Origin: Sphingomonas sp.
GTDB taxonomy: Bacteria > Pseudomonadota > Alphaproteobacteria > Sphingomonadales > Sphingomonadaceae
Direction of reading: 5' to 3'
Assembly (NCBI RefSeq): GCF_019746015.1
Contig: NZ_JAIESM010000069.1
Location: 22,208-86,207 of the forward strand
DNA: 64,000 nucleotides
In this document: piece by piece, positions 9,382 to 45,938 of the stretch
Numbering within the stretch: position 1 is the first letter of the stretch
How the letters are laid out: each line of letters starts with the position of its first letter
Notes under the pieces: generated by a model
Told to the model about the DNA's origin: nothing
What the model saw: only the letters and a program-made list of their open reading frames with translations
The model's database searches: none
Program-made: the position numbers and the translations under genes

Positions 9382-12300
9382 ATGCGCAATCAACTCTTTC
9401 TGGGCGCGGCTGTTGCTGCGCTGATGATTCCGGCCGCTGCCAGCGCCCAGGAAACCACGTCGCAGATCCGCGGCTCCGTCACCGACGAATCGGGCAACCC
9501 CGTTGGCGGCGCCCGCGTCACCATCACGCACACCCCGTCGGGCACCAGGTCGACGGTCACCAGCAACGCCGATGGCCAGTTCCAGGTCTCGGGTGTGCGC
9601 GTGGGCGGTCCGTTCACCGTCGAAGTGATGCAGGCCGGCAAGGACGTCGCGACGATTACCGACATCTACACCGTCATCGGCCAGCCCTATGACGTGCCCG
9701 TGGTGCTGACCTCGTCGCAGGACATTGTCGTCACCGCGTCGAAGGTGCGCAATTCGGGCACCCGCTCGCTCGGGCCGCAGACGCTGCTCACCGCGCGCGA
9801 CATCGCCAAGGTGGCCTCGGTCAACCGCGACGTGCGCGACCTGGCCCGCCGCGACCCGTTTGCGACGCTTGACCTTGCCAACAACCGCGCCGTCTCGTTC
9901 GCCGGTGTCAACCCGCGCTTCAACGCCTTCACCATCAACGGAGTGCGCGTGAACGACCGCTTCGGCCTGAACGCCGACGCCAACCCCACCCGCCGTGGCC
10001 CGGTGCCGCTCGACGCGATCGACCAGTTCACGGTCAGCCTGTCGCCGGTCGACGTCCGCCAGGGCAACTTCACCGGCGGCGCAATCGACGTCGTGCTGCG
10101 TCCGGGCACCAACAAGTTCGAAGGCACCGGCTTCTGGTCGATCAACACCGACGGGCTGAGCGGTGACCGCATCGGCACCACCACCACGATCAACAGCTTC
10201 AACAGCCAGACCTATGGCGGCCGCCTGTCGGGCCCGATCATCAAGGACAAGCTGTTCTTCATGGTCGCTGCCGAGCGCACCACCCAGGGCCTGCCCAACC
10301 CGAACGGCATTGCCGGCGAAGGTTTCGCCAACGCCGCCCAGGGCCTGACCCGCGCGCAGATCACGCAGATCCAGCAGATCGCGCAGCAGGTGTACAACTA
10401 CAACCCGGGCGATCTGGTGCGGAACCAGACCGAAATCGACGAAAAGATCGTCGGCCGTATCGACTGGAACATCACCGACGGCCAGCGCGCCTTCTTCACC
10501 TTCACCAACGCGTATGACTCGCTGATCATTCCGCAGGGCAACTCGGTCAACCCGCAGTCGCCGTCGGTTGGTCTGGCGTCGAACGCCTATGTGCTGACCG
10601 AGCTGCAGCGCTCGGGCCAGCTCCAGCTGAACAGCGACTGGACCGACAATTTCTCGACCGAAGCGCGTATCGGCTATCTGAGCTTCCTGCGCGGGCAGGA
10701 CCCGCTGCAGGGCCGCGGCTTCGGCCAGTTCTCGGTCTGCCTTGACCCGAACGCGACGACCAACGCCGCCGGCACGGCCAACACCAGCAACGCGACCGTC
10801 TGCACGCCGACCTCGCCGCGCATCTTTTTCGGGCCGGACCCGTCGCGCCAGACCAACGCGCTGTTCTCGGATGCGTATAGCGGCTCGCTGCTCGCCCGCC
10901 TGAACCTGGGCCAGCACAGCCTGAAGCTGCTGTTCGAGTTCGAGGAATATCGCGTCCGCAACGCGTTCGTGCAGAACTCGGCCGGTACCTGGTTCTTCGA
11001 CACCATTGCCGATTTCCAGAACCGCAACGCCGCGACCTTCACCTATCAGAACGCGCTGTCGGGCAATCTTGAAGACGCGGTTGCGAACTTCAAGACGCGC
11101 ACCTGGACCTTCGGTATCCAGGACACGTGGAAGGTCACGCCGAACTTCACCATCGACTATGGCATGCGTTATGATCTCTATGACCAGAACGGCGCCATTC
11201 CGCTGAACAACAACCTGCTGGCGCGCTCGGGCATTGCCAACACCGCGACGCTGGCTGGCCGTGGCCTGTTCCAGCCGCGCATCGGTTTCCAGTGGAAGCC
11301 GACGCCGCGCCTGTCGGTACGCGGTACTGCCGGCGTCTATGGCGGCGGCAACCCGGCTGTGTATTTCTCGAACAGCTATTCGGTGACCGGCGTCATCACC
11401 AACACCGTCAACATTCTGCGCAACAACACGCTGGGCGGCGTTCCACCGTTCCAGAACAACGTGCCCGCGAACGTCGGCACGGCGGCGTTGACGGGCGTTG
11501 ATGGCCGCACCATCAACCCGGCGATCCAGCAGTTCCTGGCGACCAACACCGGCGCCATCGCCGGGTCGCCGACCGCGCTGGTCGATCCGCGCTTCGAGGT
11601 GCCCGCCACCTCGCGCGCCACGATCTCGCTCGACTATACGGCCAATCTCGGGCCGCTGGGCGATGGCTGGCACTTCGGCTTTGACTATCTCTATGCAAAG
11701 CCGTTCCAGCAGATCGTGTTCACCGACCTGCGCTCGAACCGCACCGGCCTGCTGACGCCGGACGGCCGCCCGCGCTATAACGTGAATGTCGGCCTGCAGC
11801 CGGCGGGCAGCGTCAACACCGACATTTTGATGACCAACAGCAATGTCGGCCGCAGCCACATCTATGTCATCCGCTTCGACAAGCGCTTCAACTTCGGCCT
11901 GTCGTTCGGCGGCAGCTACACGCTGCAGGACGTGACCGATGCCGGCCCGTCGACCTCGTCGGTGGCGGCTTCGAACTACCAGAACGCCGCCTTCCGCGAT
12001 CCCAACTTCCAGGCGGCGGGCATCTCGAACGACGAGACGACCTGGCAGTTCAAGTATAATATCGGCTTCGATCGGGCGTTCTTCGGTGACTATCGCACGA
12101 TCATCCAGCTGTTCGGCGAAAGCCGCGCGGGACGCCGGTTCAGCTACACGATGCAGGACCCCAGCGCCGGTCGCGGCCCGGTGTTCGGCACCGTCGGCAA
12201 CCTGGCCAACCAGCTGCTCTACGTGCCGCTCGCTGGCAATGATCCGATCGTGTCGTATGACAGCGCCGCCACGCAGACGACGCTTGACGGCATCATCAAC

Positions 12301-12714
12301 GGCTCGGTGCTGCGCAACTTCCGCGGCCAGACCGCGCCGCGCAACATCGGCCGGTCGCGTGCCTTCACCCGCATCGACCTCCACCTGGAGCAGGAAATCC
12401 CGACCTTTGTCGGCAAGTCGCGCATCTCGCTGTTCGCGGACATCGAGAATCTGCCGAACCTGCTCAATTCGGATTGGGGCGGCCTGCGCCAGCAGGGCTT
12501 CCCGTATAATGCGGCGGTGGTGAACGTGTCGTGCCTGAACGTGCCGGTCGCCACCGGCACCGCGGCGACGGCGGCGCAGACCTCGACCATCACCCAGCCT
12601 TGCGCCCAGTATCGTTTCAGCACCGCGCGTGCGCCCAACGATGCCGCGTTCGGCAACCCGGTGCTGGGCACGTCGCTCTACACCATCCGCATCGGCGCGC
12701 GCGTTACCTTCTAA
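9382..12714 (+). CDS. Large Oar-like TonB-dependent receptor with N-terminal carboxypeptidase-regulatory-like domain
   Basis: RBS GGGGAA, signal peptide, QIRGSVTDESGNPVGGARVTITHTPSG, DIVVTA box, GNFTGGAIDVV plug, aromatic C-terminus GARVTF. Confidence 0.9.
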   Translation: MRNQLFLGAAVAALMIPAAASAQETTSQIRGSVTDESGNPVGGARVTITHTPSGTRSTVTSNADGQFQVSGVRVGGPFTVEVMQAGKDVATITDIYTVIGQPYDVPVVLTSSQDIVVTASKVRNSGTRSLGPQTLLTARDIAKVASVNRDVRDLARRDPFATLDLANNRAVSFAGVNPRFNAFTINGVRVNDRFGLNADANPTRRGPVPLDAIDQFTVSLSPVDVRQGNFTGGAIDVVLRPGTNKFEGTGFWSINTDGLSGDRIGTTTTINSFNSQTYGGRLSGPIIKDKLFFMVAAERTTQGLPNPNGIAGEGFANAAQGLTRAQITQIQQIAQQVYNYNPGDLVRNQTEIDEKIVGRIDWNITDGQRAFFTFTNAYDSLIIPQGNSVNPQSPSVGLASNAYVLTELQRSGQLQLNSDWTDNFSTEARIGYLSFLRGQDPLQGRGFGQFSVCLDPNATTNAAGTANTSNATVCTPTSPRIFFGPDPSRQTNALFSDAYSGSLLARLNLGQHSLKLLFEFEEYRVRNAFVQNSAGTWFFDTIADFQNRNAATFTYQNALSGNLEDAVANFKTRTWTFGIQDTWKVTPNFTIDYGMRYDLYDQNGAIPLNNNLLARSGIANTATLAGRGLFQPRIGFQWKPTPRLSVRGTAGVYGGGNPAVYFSNSYSVTGVITNTVNILRNNTLGGVPPFQNNVPANVGTAALTGVDGRTINPAIQQFLATNTGAIAGSPTALVDPRFEVPATSRATISLDYTANLGPLGDGWHFGFDYLYAKPFQQIVFTDLRSNRTGLLTPDGRPRYNVNVGLQPAGSVNTDILMTNSNVGRSHIYVIRFDKRFNFGLSFGGSYTLQDVTDAGPSTSSVAASNYQNAAFRDPNFQAAGISNDETTWQFKYNIGFDRAFFGDYRTIIQLFGESRAGRRFSYTMQDPSAGRGPVFGTVGNLANQLLYVPLAGNDPIVSYDSAATQTTLDGIINGSVLRNFRGQTAPRNIGRSRAFTRIDLHLEQEIPTFVGKSRISLFADIENLPNLLNSDWGGLRQQGFPYNAAVVNVSCLNVPVATGTAATAAQTSTITQPCAQYRFSTARAPNDAAFGNPVLGTSLYTIRIGARVTF

Positions 12715-12740
12715 CCGCGCCACCGATCCAGACGATCAGA

Positions 12741-12779
12741 CCGCCGTCCCCGGCAATGGGGGCGGCGGTTTGTCGTTTT
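12741..12779 (+). terminator. Intrinsic terminator after the TBDR
   Basis: CCGCCGTCCC / GGGGGCGGCGG stem followed by TTTGTCGTTTT. Confidence 0.65.
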
Positions 12780-12804
12780 GGCGGGCTTTGCGACCAAACC
12801 AACC

Positions 12805-12890
12805 CGTCGCCCCGGCCTTGAGCCGGGGCCAGACTGCCTTGCGACTGACGAAGAAGAAGCCCAGCCCCGGCTCGGGGGCCGGGGCGACGG
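12805..12890. repeat. Family E inverted REP pair (CCGTCGCCCCGGCCTTGAGCCGGGG and its inverted copy)
   Basis: 12805-12829 nearly equals the reverse complement of 12865-12890; related single copy at ~47009-47033. Confidence 0.7.
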
Positions 12891-12907
12891 CAGACTCCAG
12901 GATTTCG

Positions 12908-12943
12908 AAAAAAGCGCGCCGCCCCAGGCCCGGGGCGGCGCGC
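12908..12943 (-). terminator. Intrinsic terminator for the HD-domain gene
   Basis: 12-bp stem GCGCGCCGCCCC/GGGGCGGCGCGC followed by T6 on the minus strand. Confidence 0.75.
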
Positions 12944-12977
12944 TACGGGATGGCAGTCTGGTGTCCGGCGCGCCGGC

Positions 12978-13577
12978 TCAGACCTCGCTTGCCGGGCTTG
13001 GATAGATGCTGTGGATCGGCCGGGCCAGCACCCGCTCCACCATCGGCACGAAGAAGTCGAGCGGTGCGCTCTCGTAACCCGGGTCGAACGCCGACTGGTC
13101 ATATTTCTCGCAGAACTCGGCACAGGCCTGGAAGTGCGGATGGCCGCGAAACCCCTCGCGCAGGTCGCGGTCCATGCCCAGATAGTGGAAATAATAATAG
13201 CCTTGGAAGATGCCGTGGTGCTGCGCGATCCAGTGCAGCTCTTCCGACACGAAGGGCTTCAGCATCGCGGCGGCGATTTCGGGGTGGTTATAGCTGCCCA
13301 GCGTGTCGCCAATGTCGTGCAGCAGCGCCATCACCACATAGGCCTCGTCACGGCCGTCGCGGTGGGCGCGGGTGGCGCATTGCAGCGAATGTTCCAGCCG
13401 GTCGACCGGGAAGCCGCCATAATCACCGTCGAGCAGCTTCAGATGGGTCAGCACCCGTTCGGGCAGGCCACGCGCAAAATCGCGGAAATGGGTGGAGATC
13501 AGCGCCCAGTCCTCGGCGGTTCCTTCCGTCATCGCGCGAAAGGCGGCGCGGCCCTCATGCACGTCGATATCGCTCAT
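12978..13577 (-). CDS. HD-domain metalloprotein
   Basis: RLEHSLQCATRA, ALLHDIGD, YNHPEI, QHHGIFQ metal-ligand pattern. Confidence 0.85.
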   Translation of the reverse strand: MSDIDVHEGRAAFRAMTEGTAEDWALISTHFRDFARGLPERVLTHLKLLDGDYGGFPVDRLEHSLQCATRAHRDGRDEAYVVMALLHDIGDTLGSYNHPEIAAAMLKPFVSEELHWIAQHHGIFQGYYYFHYLGMDRDLREGFRGHPHFQACAEFCEKYDQSAFDPGYESAPLDFFVPMVERVLARPIHSIYPSPASEV

Positions 13578-40324: not shown

Positions 40325-41140
40325 ATGCGTATCGGCGTCGTCGCACCGGCCAAATCGATCGATCCGGCGCTGGCGGACAGTGCGCGCGTGCTCGCGGCCA
40401 ATCGCTTTCCCGGCGTGGAGCTGGTCATCGATCCGCAATGCTATCTGTCCGACGGGCATTTTGCCGGGCCGGATGCCACGCGCGCGGATGCCTTTGTGGC
40501 GATGGCGAATGATCCCGCGATCGACGCGATCTGGTTCGCGCGGGGCGGCTATGGCTCGGGCCGCATCCTCGCCGCCGCGCTGCCGCGCCTCACCAAGGCG
40601 GCCGAGCGCAAGACGTACATGGGCTATTCCGACATGGGCTTCCTGCTGGGCGCGCTTTATGCCCGGCGGCTGGGGCGGGTGGCGCATGGGCCGATGCTGG
40701 GCGATCTGGCGCGCGAGGGCGGCGGGGCGGCGGCTGCACGCGCGCTCGCCTGGCTGGCCCGGGGGGACCGGTCGAGCCTGGAAGGGGGGCTGGGCACGCG
40801 GCCGGCGGCGGCCTTCAACCTGGCGATCCTGGCCGCGCTTTGCGGCACGCCCTGGCTGCCCGATCTGGCGGACCATGTGCTGCTGGTGGAGGATGTGTCA
40901 GAGCCGCTCTACCGCGTCGACCGGCTGCTGTTCCAGCTGGCCCACGCCACCCAGCTGAAGGGCGTGGCCGGCGTGCGGCTGGGCCGGGTGAGCGACATCC
41001 AGCCCAACGACCCGCCCTGGCGCGAGCCGCTCGACATGATGATCCGGCGCTGGTGCGCGGAAATGGGCGTGCCCTATCTGGGGCCGGCCGATATCGGCCA
41101 TGATGTCGATAACAAGGTGGTGCCGTTCGGGCTGGCGTGA
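40325..41140 (+). CDS. ldcA: LD-carboxypeptidase (peptidase S66)
   Basis: [30 protein letters not shown]. Confidence 0.85.
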
Positions 41141-41916
41141 CGGGGGCGAGGGGGGCCGGTTCCAGTATACCGGCCAGAAATGGATCGCGGAGCTGGGCCT
41201 CTATGATTATAAAGCCCGCATGTACTCGCCCACGCTCGGCCGGTTCCTGCAGACCGACCCCATCGGCTATGGCGATGGGATGAACTGGTACAATTATGTC
41301 GGCAGCGATCCGGTCAATAAGATCGATCCGAGCGGGATGAAGGAATGTCCGGCGGGAACGGTCTATGTGCCGCACAATGGCGGATGGACAACCAACAATG
41401 GCGAAATCGTCGTAACTGGAATTCCGGGTACTTGCGAGGCCCTCAACACAAGTTCTGGCCCCACCCCCGGACCTGTGGACGGTGGCAACGCTGCACCGCC
41501 GCTGGAGCCAGAGGTGGTGGTTACTGCGCCTCGCTGTCCCCCGGTTCCCAGCCCGGGTTATGGGCCTGATGAGCTGAATAGACGTGTGAACAGTAGCGCA
41601 TTGAGGGCGTCATTTCGAAATAAGTACCTTTTTGGGCATAGGTAATCGAGAAGAATTGTTTGCTAAAAGTGCTCCATATTCTTTTAATGATTCAAAATCT
41701 TATGTAAGACGCTCTGAAAAATAAGGCAATTTTTTGTTTGGAGCAGAAGCAGCTGCTGCCGGCTTGAGCTTGAAAGAGGCATTGGAATGGGGCAAAAATG
41801 CACAAATTATACAAGATTTGATCAAGTTAAAATTTCCTAAGGGGCGCGATAGCCCAGGCGATGCCGCATTGATAACTCTCGGATACAAGTATTATTCAAG
41901 AGGATGCTCGAAGTGA
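41141..41916 (+). pseudogene. Orphan Rhs core end plus Ntox44-like toxin tip, broken by one frameshift and one stop
   Basis: [60 protein letters not shown]; frame change between 41605 and 41643; TAA at 41722; DSK, GNFLFG and DSPGD motifs. Confidence 0.85.
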
Positions 41917-42275
41917 AATATGTTCCATTCACACTAATTGCGCTGATGGCCAGCTGTAATTATAATGAAGAATATGATAGCTCATTCAATTACGATCCTG
42001 AAATTAAAATTGTAACTACCATAACAAATTCGGGTGGCGCACTGGGCGAAGAAACTTATAATGTGTATTATATATACAATAATAAGAAAAATAAGTTCTT
42101 TGAAGGTAGCAACCCAAATTATTTCAAGATAGCCAAAATAAAACAAACAATCTATATAAAATTTTGTGATGGATCAGTTAGCTTGATTGAGCCAATTTTC
42201 TTAGAGTATCCAAAAAATAAATTGATTCATGTCGGCCTAGATTTGGATTGCATCCAGCATAAAGATCGACATTAA
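41913..42275 (+). CDS. AT-rich lipoprotein, putative cognate immunity protein
   Basis: GTG overlaps the toxin TGA (alternative ATG at 41904); MKYVPFTLIALMAS-C lipoprotein signal; intact ORF. Confidence 0.65.
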   Translation: MKYVPFTLIALMASCNYNEEYDSSFNYDPEIKIVTTITNSGGALGEETYNVYYIYNNKKNKFFEGSNPNYFKIAKIKQTIYIKFCDGSVSLIEPIFLEYPKNKLIHVGLDLDCIQHKDRH

Positions 42276-42364
42276 AGAAGATAATAGAGGGCCTGTAAGC
42301 TAGGCCTTATATATTCTTATATGCGTTGTAAAACCACGTGGCCGTTTTGTCATGCCCTTTAAAG

Positions 42365-42866
42365 CGCGGCAATGGGACGGTGACGGATTACAGCTATACG
42401 TCGCTATCGCAGTTGCAGGCGCTCTCGCACGATGTGGCGGGCACGGTGCGCGATGTTGGGGTGACGTTCAGTTACACTGCGGGTGGCCAGCTGGCGAGCC
42501 GGGTGATGTCGAACGATGCCTATGCCTGGTCTGGCCTGTACACTGTGGACCGTGCCTATGCGGTGAACGGCCGCAACCAGCTTACCCAATCGGGCAGCGT
42601 GGCGCTGGGCTATGATGCGCGGGGCAATTTGTCGAGCTCGCAGGACAACCAGTATTTCTGCACGGCGGAGAACCGGCTGGCGCTGGGCTATGCGGGTGCA
42701 GGCGCGCATTATCTGGCCTATGATCCGCTGGGCCGGCTGTTGCAGATCTACAGCTATGGCGCGAACGGCGCGGTGCAGGCGATGCGGTTCGACCATATGG
42801 GCGACCGGCTGATCACGGAGGTTGATGCCCATGGCACGCGCGCGGCGCTATGCCTGGGGCCTGAGC
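42365..42866 (+). pseudogene. Rhs YD-repeat core fragment
   Basis: TDYSYTSLSQL, YAVNGRNQ, GYDARGNL, AENRL, AYDPLGRL; RRYAWG continues in a shifted frame and is then truncated. Confidence 0.8.
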
Positions 42867-43910: not shown

Positions 43911-45938
43911 ATGTCCGCCCTTGTCCGCATCACCCTTCCCGATGGCTCGGTTCGAGAAGTGGCGGCGGGCACCACCCCGGCCGAGATCGCCGCCGCGATC
44001 GGCCCGGGCCTGGCCAAGGCGGCGCTTGCTGCCCGCGTCGATGGCGAGCTGCGCGATCTGGGCCGGCCGCTGGAGGGGGATGCCGCGCTCGCGCTGGTCA
44101 CCGCGCGTGACGAGGCCGACGCGCTGGAACTGGTCCGCCACGATTATGCGCATGTGCTGGCGGAAGCCGTGCAGGCGCTGTTCCCGGGCACGCAGATCAC
44201 ATTCGGCCCGTCGACCGACGATGGCTTTTACTATGACTTCGCGCCGAAGGACCGACCCTTCACCGAGGACGACCTGCCCGCGATCGAGGACGCGATGCGC
44301 GCGATCATCCGCGCCGACAAGCCGCTGCGCCGGGAAGTGTGGGACCGCGACACGCTGATCAGCCGCTGGCGCCAGCAGGGCGAAAGCTTCAAGGCCGAAT
44401 GGGCCGCCGAACTGCCCGAGGGCGAGCCGCTGACGGTCTATTGGTCGGGCGAGGACTGGCTGGACATGTGCCGGGGGCCGCATCTGCCCTCCACCGGCAA
44501 GCTCGCGCCCGATGCGTTCAAGCTGACGCGCGTCTCGGGCGCCTATTGGCGCGGTGATCAGAACAACCCGCAATTGAGCCGCATCTATGGCACCGGCTGG
44601 CTGAACAAGAAGCAGCTCGACGCGCATCTGACCCGGCTGGAAGAAGCCGCCAAGCGCGACCACCGCAAGCTGGGGCAGGAAATGGACCTGTTCCACCTGC
44701 AGCAGGAGGCGCACGGGTCGGTATTCTGGCACCCGCACGGCTTCACCATCTGGCGCGCGCTGGAGGCCTATATGCGCCGCGCGATCGACGGCGCGGGTTA
44801 CCGCGAGATCAAGACGCCGCAATTGATGGACGTGGCGCAGTGGGAGCAGTCCGGCCACTGGGGCAAATATGCCGAGAACATGTTCGCGGTGCCCGACATC
44901 GTGCCCGATGGGGAGGGCGGCGCACCCAAGGTTGCCGCCGATGCCGACTGGATGGCGATGAAGCCGATGAACTGCCCGGCGCATGTGCTGGTGTTCCGCC
45001 AGGGCATCAAAAGCTATCGCGACCTGCCGCTGCGTTTCTTCGAGCATGGCTGCTGCCACCGCAACGAAGCGCATGGCGCGCTGCACGGTCTGATGCGGGT
45101 GCGGCAATTCACCCAGGACGACGCGCATATCTTCTGCCGAGAGGACCAGATCGTCGACGAGGCACGCGCCTTTTGCGCGCTGGCCGACCGCATCTACAAG
45201 GATTTCGGCTTCACCTATGCGGTCAAGCTCGCGCTGCGCCCCGAAAAGCGCTTCGGGTCGGAGGCGGACTGGGACAAGGCCGAGCAGGAACTGCGCGAGG
45301 CGGTCGAGCGCGCCGGCATGGCGAACGCCGATTATGGCTGGGAAGAACTGCCGGGCGAGGGCGCCTTCTACGCGCCCAAGCTCGAATGGCATCTGACCGA
45401 CGCCATCGGCCGCACCTGGCAGGTCGGCACGCTGCAATCCGACCGGGTGCTGCCCGAACGGCTCGACGCAAGCTATGTCGGCGAGGATGGCGCGAAGCAC
45501 CGCCCGGTGATGCTCCACCGCGCGATCTTCGGCAGCTATGAACGCTTCATCGGCATATTGATCGAACATTATGCCGGCCGCTTCCCGCTATGGCTGGCGC
45601 CGGTGCAGGCGGTGGTCGCCACCATCGTGTCCGACGCGGATGATTATGCCCGCCACGTCGCCGCGCGGCTCGCCGCCGCCGGCATCCGCGTCGAAACCGA
45701 CACGCGCAACGAGAAGATCAACTACAAGGTGCGCGAGCACAGCCTGGCCAAGGTGCCCAGGCTGATCGTGGTCGGCAAGCGCGAGGCGGAAGAAGGCACC
45801 GTCGCCCTGCGCGAACTGGGCAGCGAGCGGCAGCAGGTGATCGCGCTCGACACGCTGGTCGAGCAGCTGGTGGCGGAAGCACTGGCGCCCGATCTGCGCC
45901 GGAACGAGGCCGCCGCCGCCGCCGCCATGGCTGATTAA
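43911..45938 (+). CDS. thrS: Threonine--tRNA ligase
   Basis: TGS domain [53 protein letters not shown]. Confidence 0.97.

Follow-up and report, generated by a model that had tools for sequence, protein, structure and literature searches.

The 64,000-nucleotide stretch of contig NZ_JAIESM010000069.1 from Sphingomonas sp. that was analysed here, referred to below as the window, carries a decayed orphan C-terminal cassette of the Rhs family of polymorphic toxins, composed of a core end, a release site, a linker, a broken Ntox44 toxin domain and a foreign, AT-rich immunity gene (Table 1). The linker is the main subject of this report, as it holds two short motifs that match the TonB boxes of TonB-dependent receptors; the motif recurs in the toxin tips of Rhs proteins from other Sphingomonadaceae, and it may be a TonB-box mimic that serves the import of the toxin into target cells.

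The stop codon of the ldcA-like gene abuts the first Rhs homology, and the Rhs_assc_core model TIGR03696 matches the core remnant over model positions 16-76 only (E = 6.4e-22, 77.8 bits with a cut-off of 32.5). The reading frame that holds the core end and both motifs spans 41100-41645 on the + strand; the map of open reading frames (ORFs) and the translations show neither an RHS shell in frame upstream of 41153 nor a credible start. Because Rhs homology begins at 41153, right behind the ldcA stop, and RHS repeats are found only downstream, the cassette is an orphan fragment. Searches of the linker with Pfam and NCBIfam returned no known pre-toxin domain.

The Ntox44 domain (PF15607) was matched on the piece past the frameshift, with an X at the stop (E = 7.7e-9, 36.3 bits with a cut-off of 24). 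By three-frame translation the toxin frame is broken twice: the first break falls near the T5 run at 41629-41633, with the frame-1 stop at 41643-41645, and an in-frame TAA follows at 41722-41724; assembly errors in the T5, A5 and T6 runs may be the source of the frameshift and the stop. With an orphan core that has no shell or start, and a toxin broken by both lesions, the window copy as assembled cannot work; it is non-functional and could at most be a recombination reservoir. The layout is that of a variable toxin, here the broken Ntox44, followed by a small AT-rich immunity gene: the G+C content is 29-34% in the ORF at the immunity position and 29-41% in toxin and ORF together, compared to 67.5% for the genome. 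No Pfam family was found for this ORF; its N-terminus is of the lipoprotein type even though Ntox44 is a predicted RNase, and an immunity protein located in the envelope would be in keeping with a toxin on its way through the periplasm.

Table 1. Features of the orphan Rhs cassette and its flanks (window coordinates)
Feature	Position	Strand	Evidence and remarks
LD-carboxypeptidase gene (ldcA-like)	40325..41140	+	Pfam Peptidase_S66 1.7e-23, Peptidase_S66C 2.5e-21; start approximate
Rhs core remnant, last 63 residues (GGRFQYTG...DPIGY...DPSGM)	41153..41339	+	TIGR03696
DPSG-M, predicted autoproteolytic tip release site	41325..41339	+	DPSG 41325-41336, M 41337-41339; in alignment with the DPxG(L/M) terminus of every core end collected
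Gly/Pro/Thr/Ser-rich pre-toxin linker	41340..41579	+	Translation
TonB-box-like motif 1, GEIVVTGIP	41400..41426	+	14.7 bits; GEIVVTG 41400-41420, EIVVTG 41403-41420
TonB-box-like motif 2, PEVVVTAPR	41508..41534	+	19.0 bits; P 41508-41510, EVVVTA 41511-41528, PR 41529-41534; cf. PEVVVTGTS and PAVVVTGTR among the genome's receptor boxes
Ntox44-type toxin domain, pseudogenised	41580..41916	+	Ends with TGA 41914-41916
Immunity-position ORF, 123 residues, lipoprotein-like N-terminus (KYVPFTLIALMAS-C)	41904..42275	+	ORF list
Detached RHS-repeat shell fragment, ~170 residues	42338..42850	+	Pfam RHS_repeat 5.4e-9, PF05593 match
thrS	43911-45938		Translation; non-coding or junk sequence between the RHS fragment and thrS

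TonB-box-like motifs in the linker

The linker keeps two copies of [DE]-[IV]-[IV]-V-T-[GA]-x-[RK], which matches the receptor TonB box together with the residues that follow it. Scoring was based on a nine-column log-odds matrix derived from the TonB boxes of the 18 TonB-dependent receptors of the same genome, located via the Plug family; on this matrix the real receptor boxes score 15.3-26.0 bits, the range against which the two tip scores in Table 1 can be read. In 20,000 shuffles of the tip, a single match of at least 10 bits appeared in 0.5% and two matches appeared in none. The consensus of the 18 boxes is [DE][IV]VV[TV][GA]x[RK], with DEVVVTATG, GDIVVTAQK, PEVVVTGTS, PAVVVTGTR and DEVVVVGRR among them; the three receptors encoded in the window itself display QDIVVTASK, KDVVVTATK and DEVVVVGRR. 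TonB-dependent bacteriocins carry their TonB box in a disordered stretch on the N-terminal side of the toxic domain, and the tip shares this architecture, with two matrix matches in a G/P/T/S-rich linker.

A first-pass annotation, made from the window sequence, had drawn attention to this tip. Its coordinates for DPSG, EIVVTG and EVVVTA are exact, the Gly/Pro/Thr-rich segment that it described at the start of the tip is borne out by the translation, and the boxes DIVVTA, DVVVTA and EVVVVG that it compared with the motifs are indeed those of the window's own receptors; the colicin-like order of boxes, linker and Ntox44-like domain also stands, and the observation itself is confirmed.

Gene conversion from a receptor gene was considered as the source of the motifs and rejected, as DNA similarity is limited to chance matches of 13-16 bases. 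The box QDIVVTASK of the window receptor at 9775-13260 (G000:C97:31982 onward) lies ~160 residues into the open frame, giving this receptor a long N-terminal extension before its box.

Recurrence in Rhs tips of Sphingomonadaceae

Across the Rhs proteins of Sphingomonadaceae, the motif recurs as a module of the pre-toxin linker that is specific to the lineage; in Caulobacteraceae its presence is weaker. The family sample comprised 301 genomes, of which 78 contain Rhs core ends; each tip was scored over the first 120 residues past the release site with a threshold of 10 bits. In a first sample from the family 23 of 123 tips reached the threshold, compared to 0.68 on average and at most 4 in shuffles; nine tips scored at least 18 bits, for which the shuffle mean is 0.01. 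The background rate at the threshold is 0.78% of the ORF windows of the window's own genome, receptors included, and the later toxin part of the tips reached it in 0 of 100 cases.

Tip starts were also defined with a hidden Markov model of the core end, which replaced a regular-expression extraction that missed many tips from outside the family. With this definition, the motif is present in 25 of 135 tips (18.5%) from Sphingomonadaceae, whereas the 103 tips sampled from 26 further families in the phylum all lack it (Fisher p = 3.5e-7); the best score among the outside tips is 8.8 bits, and IVVTG does not occur in them. The scan of named genomes had EPEVVVTA among its seed words and its motif frequency is therefore biased; the value of 18.5% comes from the sample without that seed.

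When the sample is pooled with the named genomes, 51 of 198 tips bear the motif and are spread over 40 of 152 unrelated sequence clusters; 11 of the pooled tips carry two or three copies. The motif is located 0-90 residues past the release site, with flanks enriched in G, P, S and D. A MAFFT alignment of the 51 motif-bearing tips has a mean column identity of 9% and IVVTGxR as its sole consensus; de novo 5-mers counted across clusters are led by IVVTG (7 clusters), IVVTA (5) and EIVVT (4), where the shuffle maximum is 4. The motif is under selection in the disordered linker that forms the N-terminus of the cleaved tip.

Individual tips illustrate the range of arrangements. A tip from Allosphingosinicella features three boxes with glycine runs between them (QEIVVTGSRSGGGGGQEIVVTAQIRR...QEIVVNGRK), that of Sphingomonas panni DSM 15761 displays SGGPDIVVTGSRPAFG at the very start of the new N-terminus, and further examples are seen in S. 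elodea ATCC 31461 (EDDEIVVTGKKWEP) and in one Sphingomonas assembly (DDIVVTSGGGSGGGSGG...DDIVVTARKNRE). The motif is weaker and looser in Caulobacteraceae, where two of 29 tips score at least 10 bits and five at least 8 bits (e.g. CEVDVTATR and VIVVVTGPK), and none of the Planctomycetota relatives has it. A variety of toxin domains follow the motif, most of them without a Pfam family; PT-HINT was detected by Pfam in only one of the 51 motif-bearing tips.

One family of motif-less tips (L011, L013, L016, L018 and L031) begins, past DPxGL/M, with Y(E/Q/V)C...C and contains HExxH (LAHEAYH, LAHEVQH, LAHEGRH, LIHEGQH and LAHEMTH); by its sequence it looks like a metallopeptidase toxin, which Pfam does not recognise.

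Parent proteins, secretion systems and gene neighbourhood

The full-length relatives are proteins of 1390-2105 residues, all 11 of which start with a segment that resembles a signal peptide when judged by eye (e.g. MRTKSLFLSTAAILPAIFVAAPLAAQ). Pfam searches of five of them detected RHS repeats, to which the long ones add DUF6531 or a transglutaminase-like domain, and nothing else; neither PAAR nor VgrG was among the domains detected in these five. TssC, the sheath gene of type VI secretion systems (T6SS), was not found in the window's own genome and is present in three of 77 Rhs-bearing genomes of the family, compared to 28 of 52 outside it; 57 of the 103 outside tips come from T6SS-positive genomes. 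The combination that marks a T6SS Rhs effector, a T6SS together with PAAR, prePAAR or VgrG linkage, is not seen here. Rhs frames in the family fall into size classes of ~900, ~1400-1500 and ~2100-2300 residues (L121:12296-14201 among the cases); the longest class combines a transglutaminase-like N-domain with DUF6531, and the short class seems to pass from the signal peptide directly to YD repeats.

The window's genome is available as a 2.65-Mb assembly of 101 contigs (94.6% complete) with three Rhs core ends, the window copy included, all of them orphan-like; one of the other two has GDEVTVTGCR shortly past its DPDGL site. In each of the three (G000:C51:7296-10070; G000:C90:45637-47800, - strand; window 41153-42850) a detached piece with RHS repeats lies 1.4-2.2 kb downstream, and the C51 and C90 cores share their starting point (GDDDPLVWYEG). 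The assembly contains no full-length rhs gene, possibly as a result of repeats breaking the contigs.

No conserved partner gene was found beside the full-length rhs genes in 11 loci. At one locus from the same genus (L114:7361-10318, genome G195), a gene for a TonB-dependent receptor of 986 residues is located ~600 bp upstream of rhs on the same strand; the tip of this rhs has one of the best boxes, KSIPDIVVTGTRSSA, with 25.3 bits. A gene for a VirB4/TrbE type IV secretion ATPase adjoins and diverges from rhs in three to four of the 11 loci (L115:8723-11176, L121:1547-4027, L122:1322-3832 and probably L118:85-2680), which suggests a mobile-element context with rhs riding on conjugative elements.

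The ORFs at the immunity position beside motif-bearing tips have an N-terminal hydrophobic segment in 23 of 35 cases by a crude heuristic, many with several such segments, which fits toxins that cross the envelope or act in it. Immunity localisation as a difference between motif-bearing and motif-less tips was rejected, since 23 of 35 vs 44 of 82 by the same crude heuristic is not convincing. Neither a TonB_C domain nor a shared family was found in 34 immunity-position ORFs beside motif-bearing tips.

Two exported, non-receptor proteins of the window's genome, of 229 and 305 residues (G000:C86 ~8467 and G000:C82 ~2734, both on the - strand), display the motif right after the signal peptide, as VRAQ-EIVVTGARR and TPQADIVVTGERL; neither belongs to a Pfam family, and they may be periplasmic TonB-box proteins.

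Import by TonB and competing explanations

The preferred explanation, held tentatively and at a little less than an even chance, is that the motif is a TonB-box mimic and that the toxin is pulled into the target by TonB through a TonB-dependent receptor. The Rhs protein would be exported and reach the target cell, with the tip released at DPxG and held unfolded inside the shell; the disordered N-terminal linker of the tip would then be presented to the target periplasm, where the C-terminal domain of TonB would pair with the box by β-strand, and the proton-motive force, acting via TonB-ExbBD, would pull the unfolded toxin across the outer membrane through the target's receptor, the entry route of group B colicins and S-type pyocins. 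A broader proposal is that the Sec-exported Rhs proteins of Sphingomonadaceae, and some of those of Caulobacteraceae, are a T6SS-independent, bacteriocin-like weapon in which one to three boxes let the victim's TonB extract the toxin from the shell and through a receptor; this is conceivable but somewhat doubtful.

Several points weigh against import by TonB. The local copy is a pseudogene, and only ~19-26% of the family's tips carry the motif, which these Rhs proteins therefore do not generally require; it is likewise missing in the 46 tips that come from other families' genomes without a T6SS, so that the motif marks the lineage and not the mere absence of a T6SS. A TonB-dependent receptor gene is found beside rhs in only one of the 11 full-length loci, no receptor-binding module was recognised, and Pfam is empty in the linkers. 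The protein, of ~150 kDa and apparently Sec-exported, must still leave the periplasm of the producer; the tip is enclosed in the shell, and exposure of the box would thus need a further release step. For Ntox44, a predicted RNase, passage over the inner membrane would be needed as well. The two exported non-receptor proteins with the motif further imply that it may have a wider or different role in the periplasm.

These two proteins keep alive an explanation in which TonB is indeed bound by the motif, though not for import across the outer membrane of the target: the motif would serve release or export of the Rhs protein on the producer side, or the pulling of the toxin from the shell inside the target periplasm after delivery by vesicles or membrane exchange. 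Apparently exported via Sec, the parent proteins would reach the periplasm, the home of the TonB C-terminal domain; the two proteins suggest periplasmic uses of TonB boxes beyond receptors, TonB-dependent secretion has a precedent in Oar/PopC of Myxococcus, and the same-genus relative in which rhs has a receptor gene of like orientation directly upstream points in this direction as well. However, the tip that holds the motif should be sealed within the shell while in the producer; such adjacency is limited to that single locus, a conserved partner gene was not found, and the order of free N-terminus after cleavage, disordered linker, box and toxin is that of an imported bacteriocin, leaving producer-side or post-delivery use of TonB rather improbable. 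Unlikely, though it deserves some weight, is a β-strand element unrelated to TonB, which would dock to the inside or plug of the shell, to a chaperone, to the immunity protein or to another envelope receptor, with the likeness to a TonB box being convergence. IVVTG is intrinsically strand-prone, the motif is confined to one lineage of Rhs shells, and its binding to TonB is inferred; however, the likeness spans eight to nine positions, with an acidic residue ahead of the core and G/A-x-R/K behind it, exactly as in the local receptors. Furthermore, the shell does not need the motif, as ~75-80% of the tips that shells of this kind carry are without it; one to three copies at variable distances in disordered Gly-rich linkers are unlike a fixed structural contact, and the immunity-position ORFs (0 of 34) match no shared family or TonB_C.

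Chance, a compositional artefact, or a single ancestral linker that hitch-hikes by recombination with no selection on the motif is highly improbable, and is largely refuted by the shuffles, the family comparison, the clusters, the alignment and the k-mers. Rhs tips do recombine freely, some motif-bearing tips are mutually homologous (11 multi-member clusters), and the EPEVVVTA seed biases the named-genome sample; however, 23-25 motif-bearing tips were observed where shuffles predict 0.68, the seed-free sample still gives 18.5%, the 40 clusters are unrelated in their flanks and toxin domains, and the motif is both the only conserved element in the tip alignment and the top de novo k-mer across clusters.

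The first-pass annotation had gone on to propose that the released tip imports itself through a TonB-dependent receptor without a T6SS. The enrichment that it anticipated in related tips is found, with shuffles below one, in Sphingomonadaceae and in weaker form in Caulobacteraceae; a strict association with T6SS, VgrG or PAAR is not, TssC being absent from 74 of the 77 Rhs-bearing family genomes and PAAR and VgrG from the five relatives scanned. It knew of no Rhs system working this way, and no description of TonB-box or TonB-dependent Rhs toxins was found in the literature searched on Rhs or RHS repeats with TonB or signal peptides. The idea of self-import gains from these comparative tests at the level of the class; it had, however, overlooked the enclosure by the shell and the apparent Sec export, and it cannot apply to the window copy, which as assembled cannot work. 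As far as sequence comparison goes, the class-level interpretation is partly supported.

A receptor-type box at the very place where cleavage leaves the tip with a free, disordered N-terminus provides a concrete and genetically testable hypothesis for Rhs delivery in bacteria without a T6SS; about a quarter of the sampled Sphingomonadaceae genomes are Rhs-bearing, and a T6SS is present in only three of 77 of those. If true, import by TonB would be a new way for Rhs toxins to be delivered, one in which the strategies of Rhs proteins and colicins are naturally combined. Protein import that depends on TonB would then reach past colicins and pyocins and take in the largest polymorphic toxin family; the biology of Rhs proteins in those alphaproteobacteria that have many TonB-dependent receptors would become easier to explain, and there would be many natural modules of box plus linker that move unrelated cargo domains over the outer membrane.

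Comparison with known systems

TonB-dependent entry is established for bacteriocins such as pyocin S2, which enters through FpvAI (PMC5692591, PMC10994204), and toxins of the ColM family have been reviewed (PMC5821083). Like group B colicins and S- and M-type pyocins, the Rhs tips described here have a disordered N-terminal region with a short TonB box before a C-terminal toxic domain; in both cases polymorphic toxin modules are paired with immunity genes, and the producers are rich in TonB-dependent receptors. The differences are that the box of the Rhs tips follows the autoproteolytic site of an Rhs protein, that the tip itself is normally housed in a large Rhs shell, that up to three boxes occur per tip, and that the box copies the receptor-type consensus (DIVVTGxR) rather than the looser box of the colicin type. 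Colicins and pyocins have no signal peptide, being synthesised in the cytoplasm and released by lysis, whereas the Rhs parents of the relatives have a signal-peptide-like N-terminus; unlike in colicins and pyocins, a receptor-binding domain was not recognised in the Rhs tips.

With T6SS Rhs effectors, such as enterobacterial RhsA/B and Tse5/RhsP of Pseudomonas, the cassettes share the core end DPxG...DPxG(L), the variable C-terminal toxin, the downstream immunity gene and the occurrence of orphan tip cassettes. They differ in that no linkage to PAAR, prePAAR or VgrG is seen in the relatives examined, and in that the sheath gene is absent from all but three of the 77 Rhs-bearing family genomes.

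RHS polymorphic toxins of the Sec and type II secretion system (T2SS) class were catalogued by Zhang et al. 2012, who name pre-toxin modules such as PT-HINT (PMC3482391); a full-text count of the word TonB in that paper gives zero occurrences. These toxins, like WapA of B. subtilis, have the order seen in the relatives here, with a signal peptide followed by RHS repeats and a polymorphic C-terminal toxin, and in some cases an inactive transglutaminase-like N-domain as in the relatives of 2100 residues. WapA, however, targets Gram-positive cells, which have no outer membrane.

Tce1 of Yersinia pseudotuberculosis is a T6SS effector with intrinsic cell entry via BtuB and TolB (PMC7813860). It is thus a toxin of a contact weapon that is able to enter via a nutrient receptor of the outer membrane, as is proposed for the Rhs tips; unlike them, it is a small non-Rhs nuclease that is secreted by a T6SS, relies on the Tol pathway and lacks a TonB box. 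The Rhs-tip motif differs from the TonB box of receptors in its setting, as it is located in a toxin linker rather than before a plug or barrel and is often repeated; in itself it is the same as the receptor box, down to the flanking acidic and basic residues, and the two have comparable scores.

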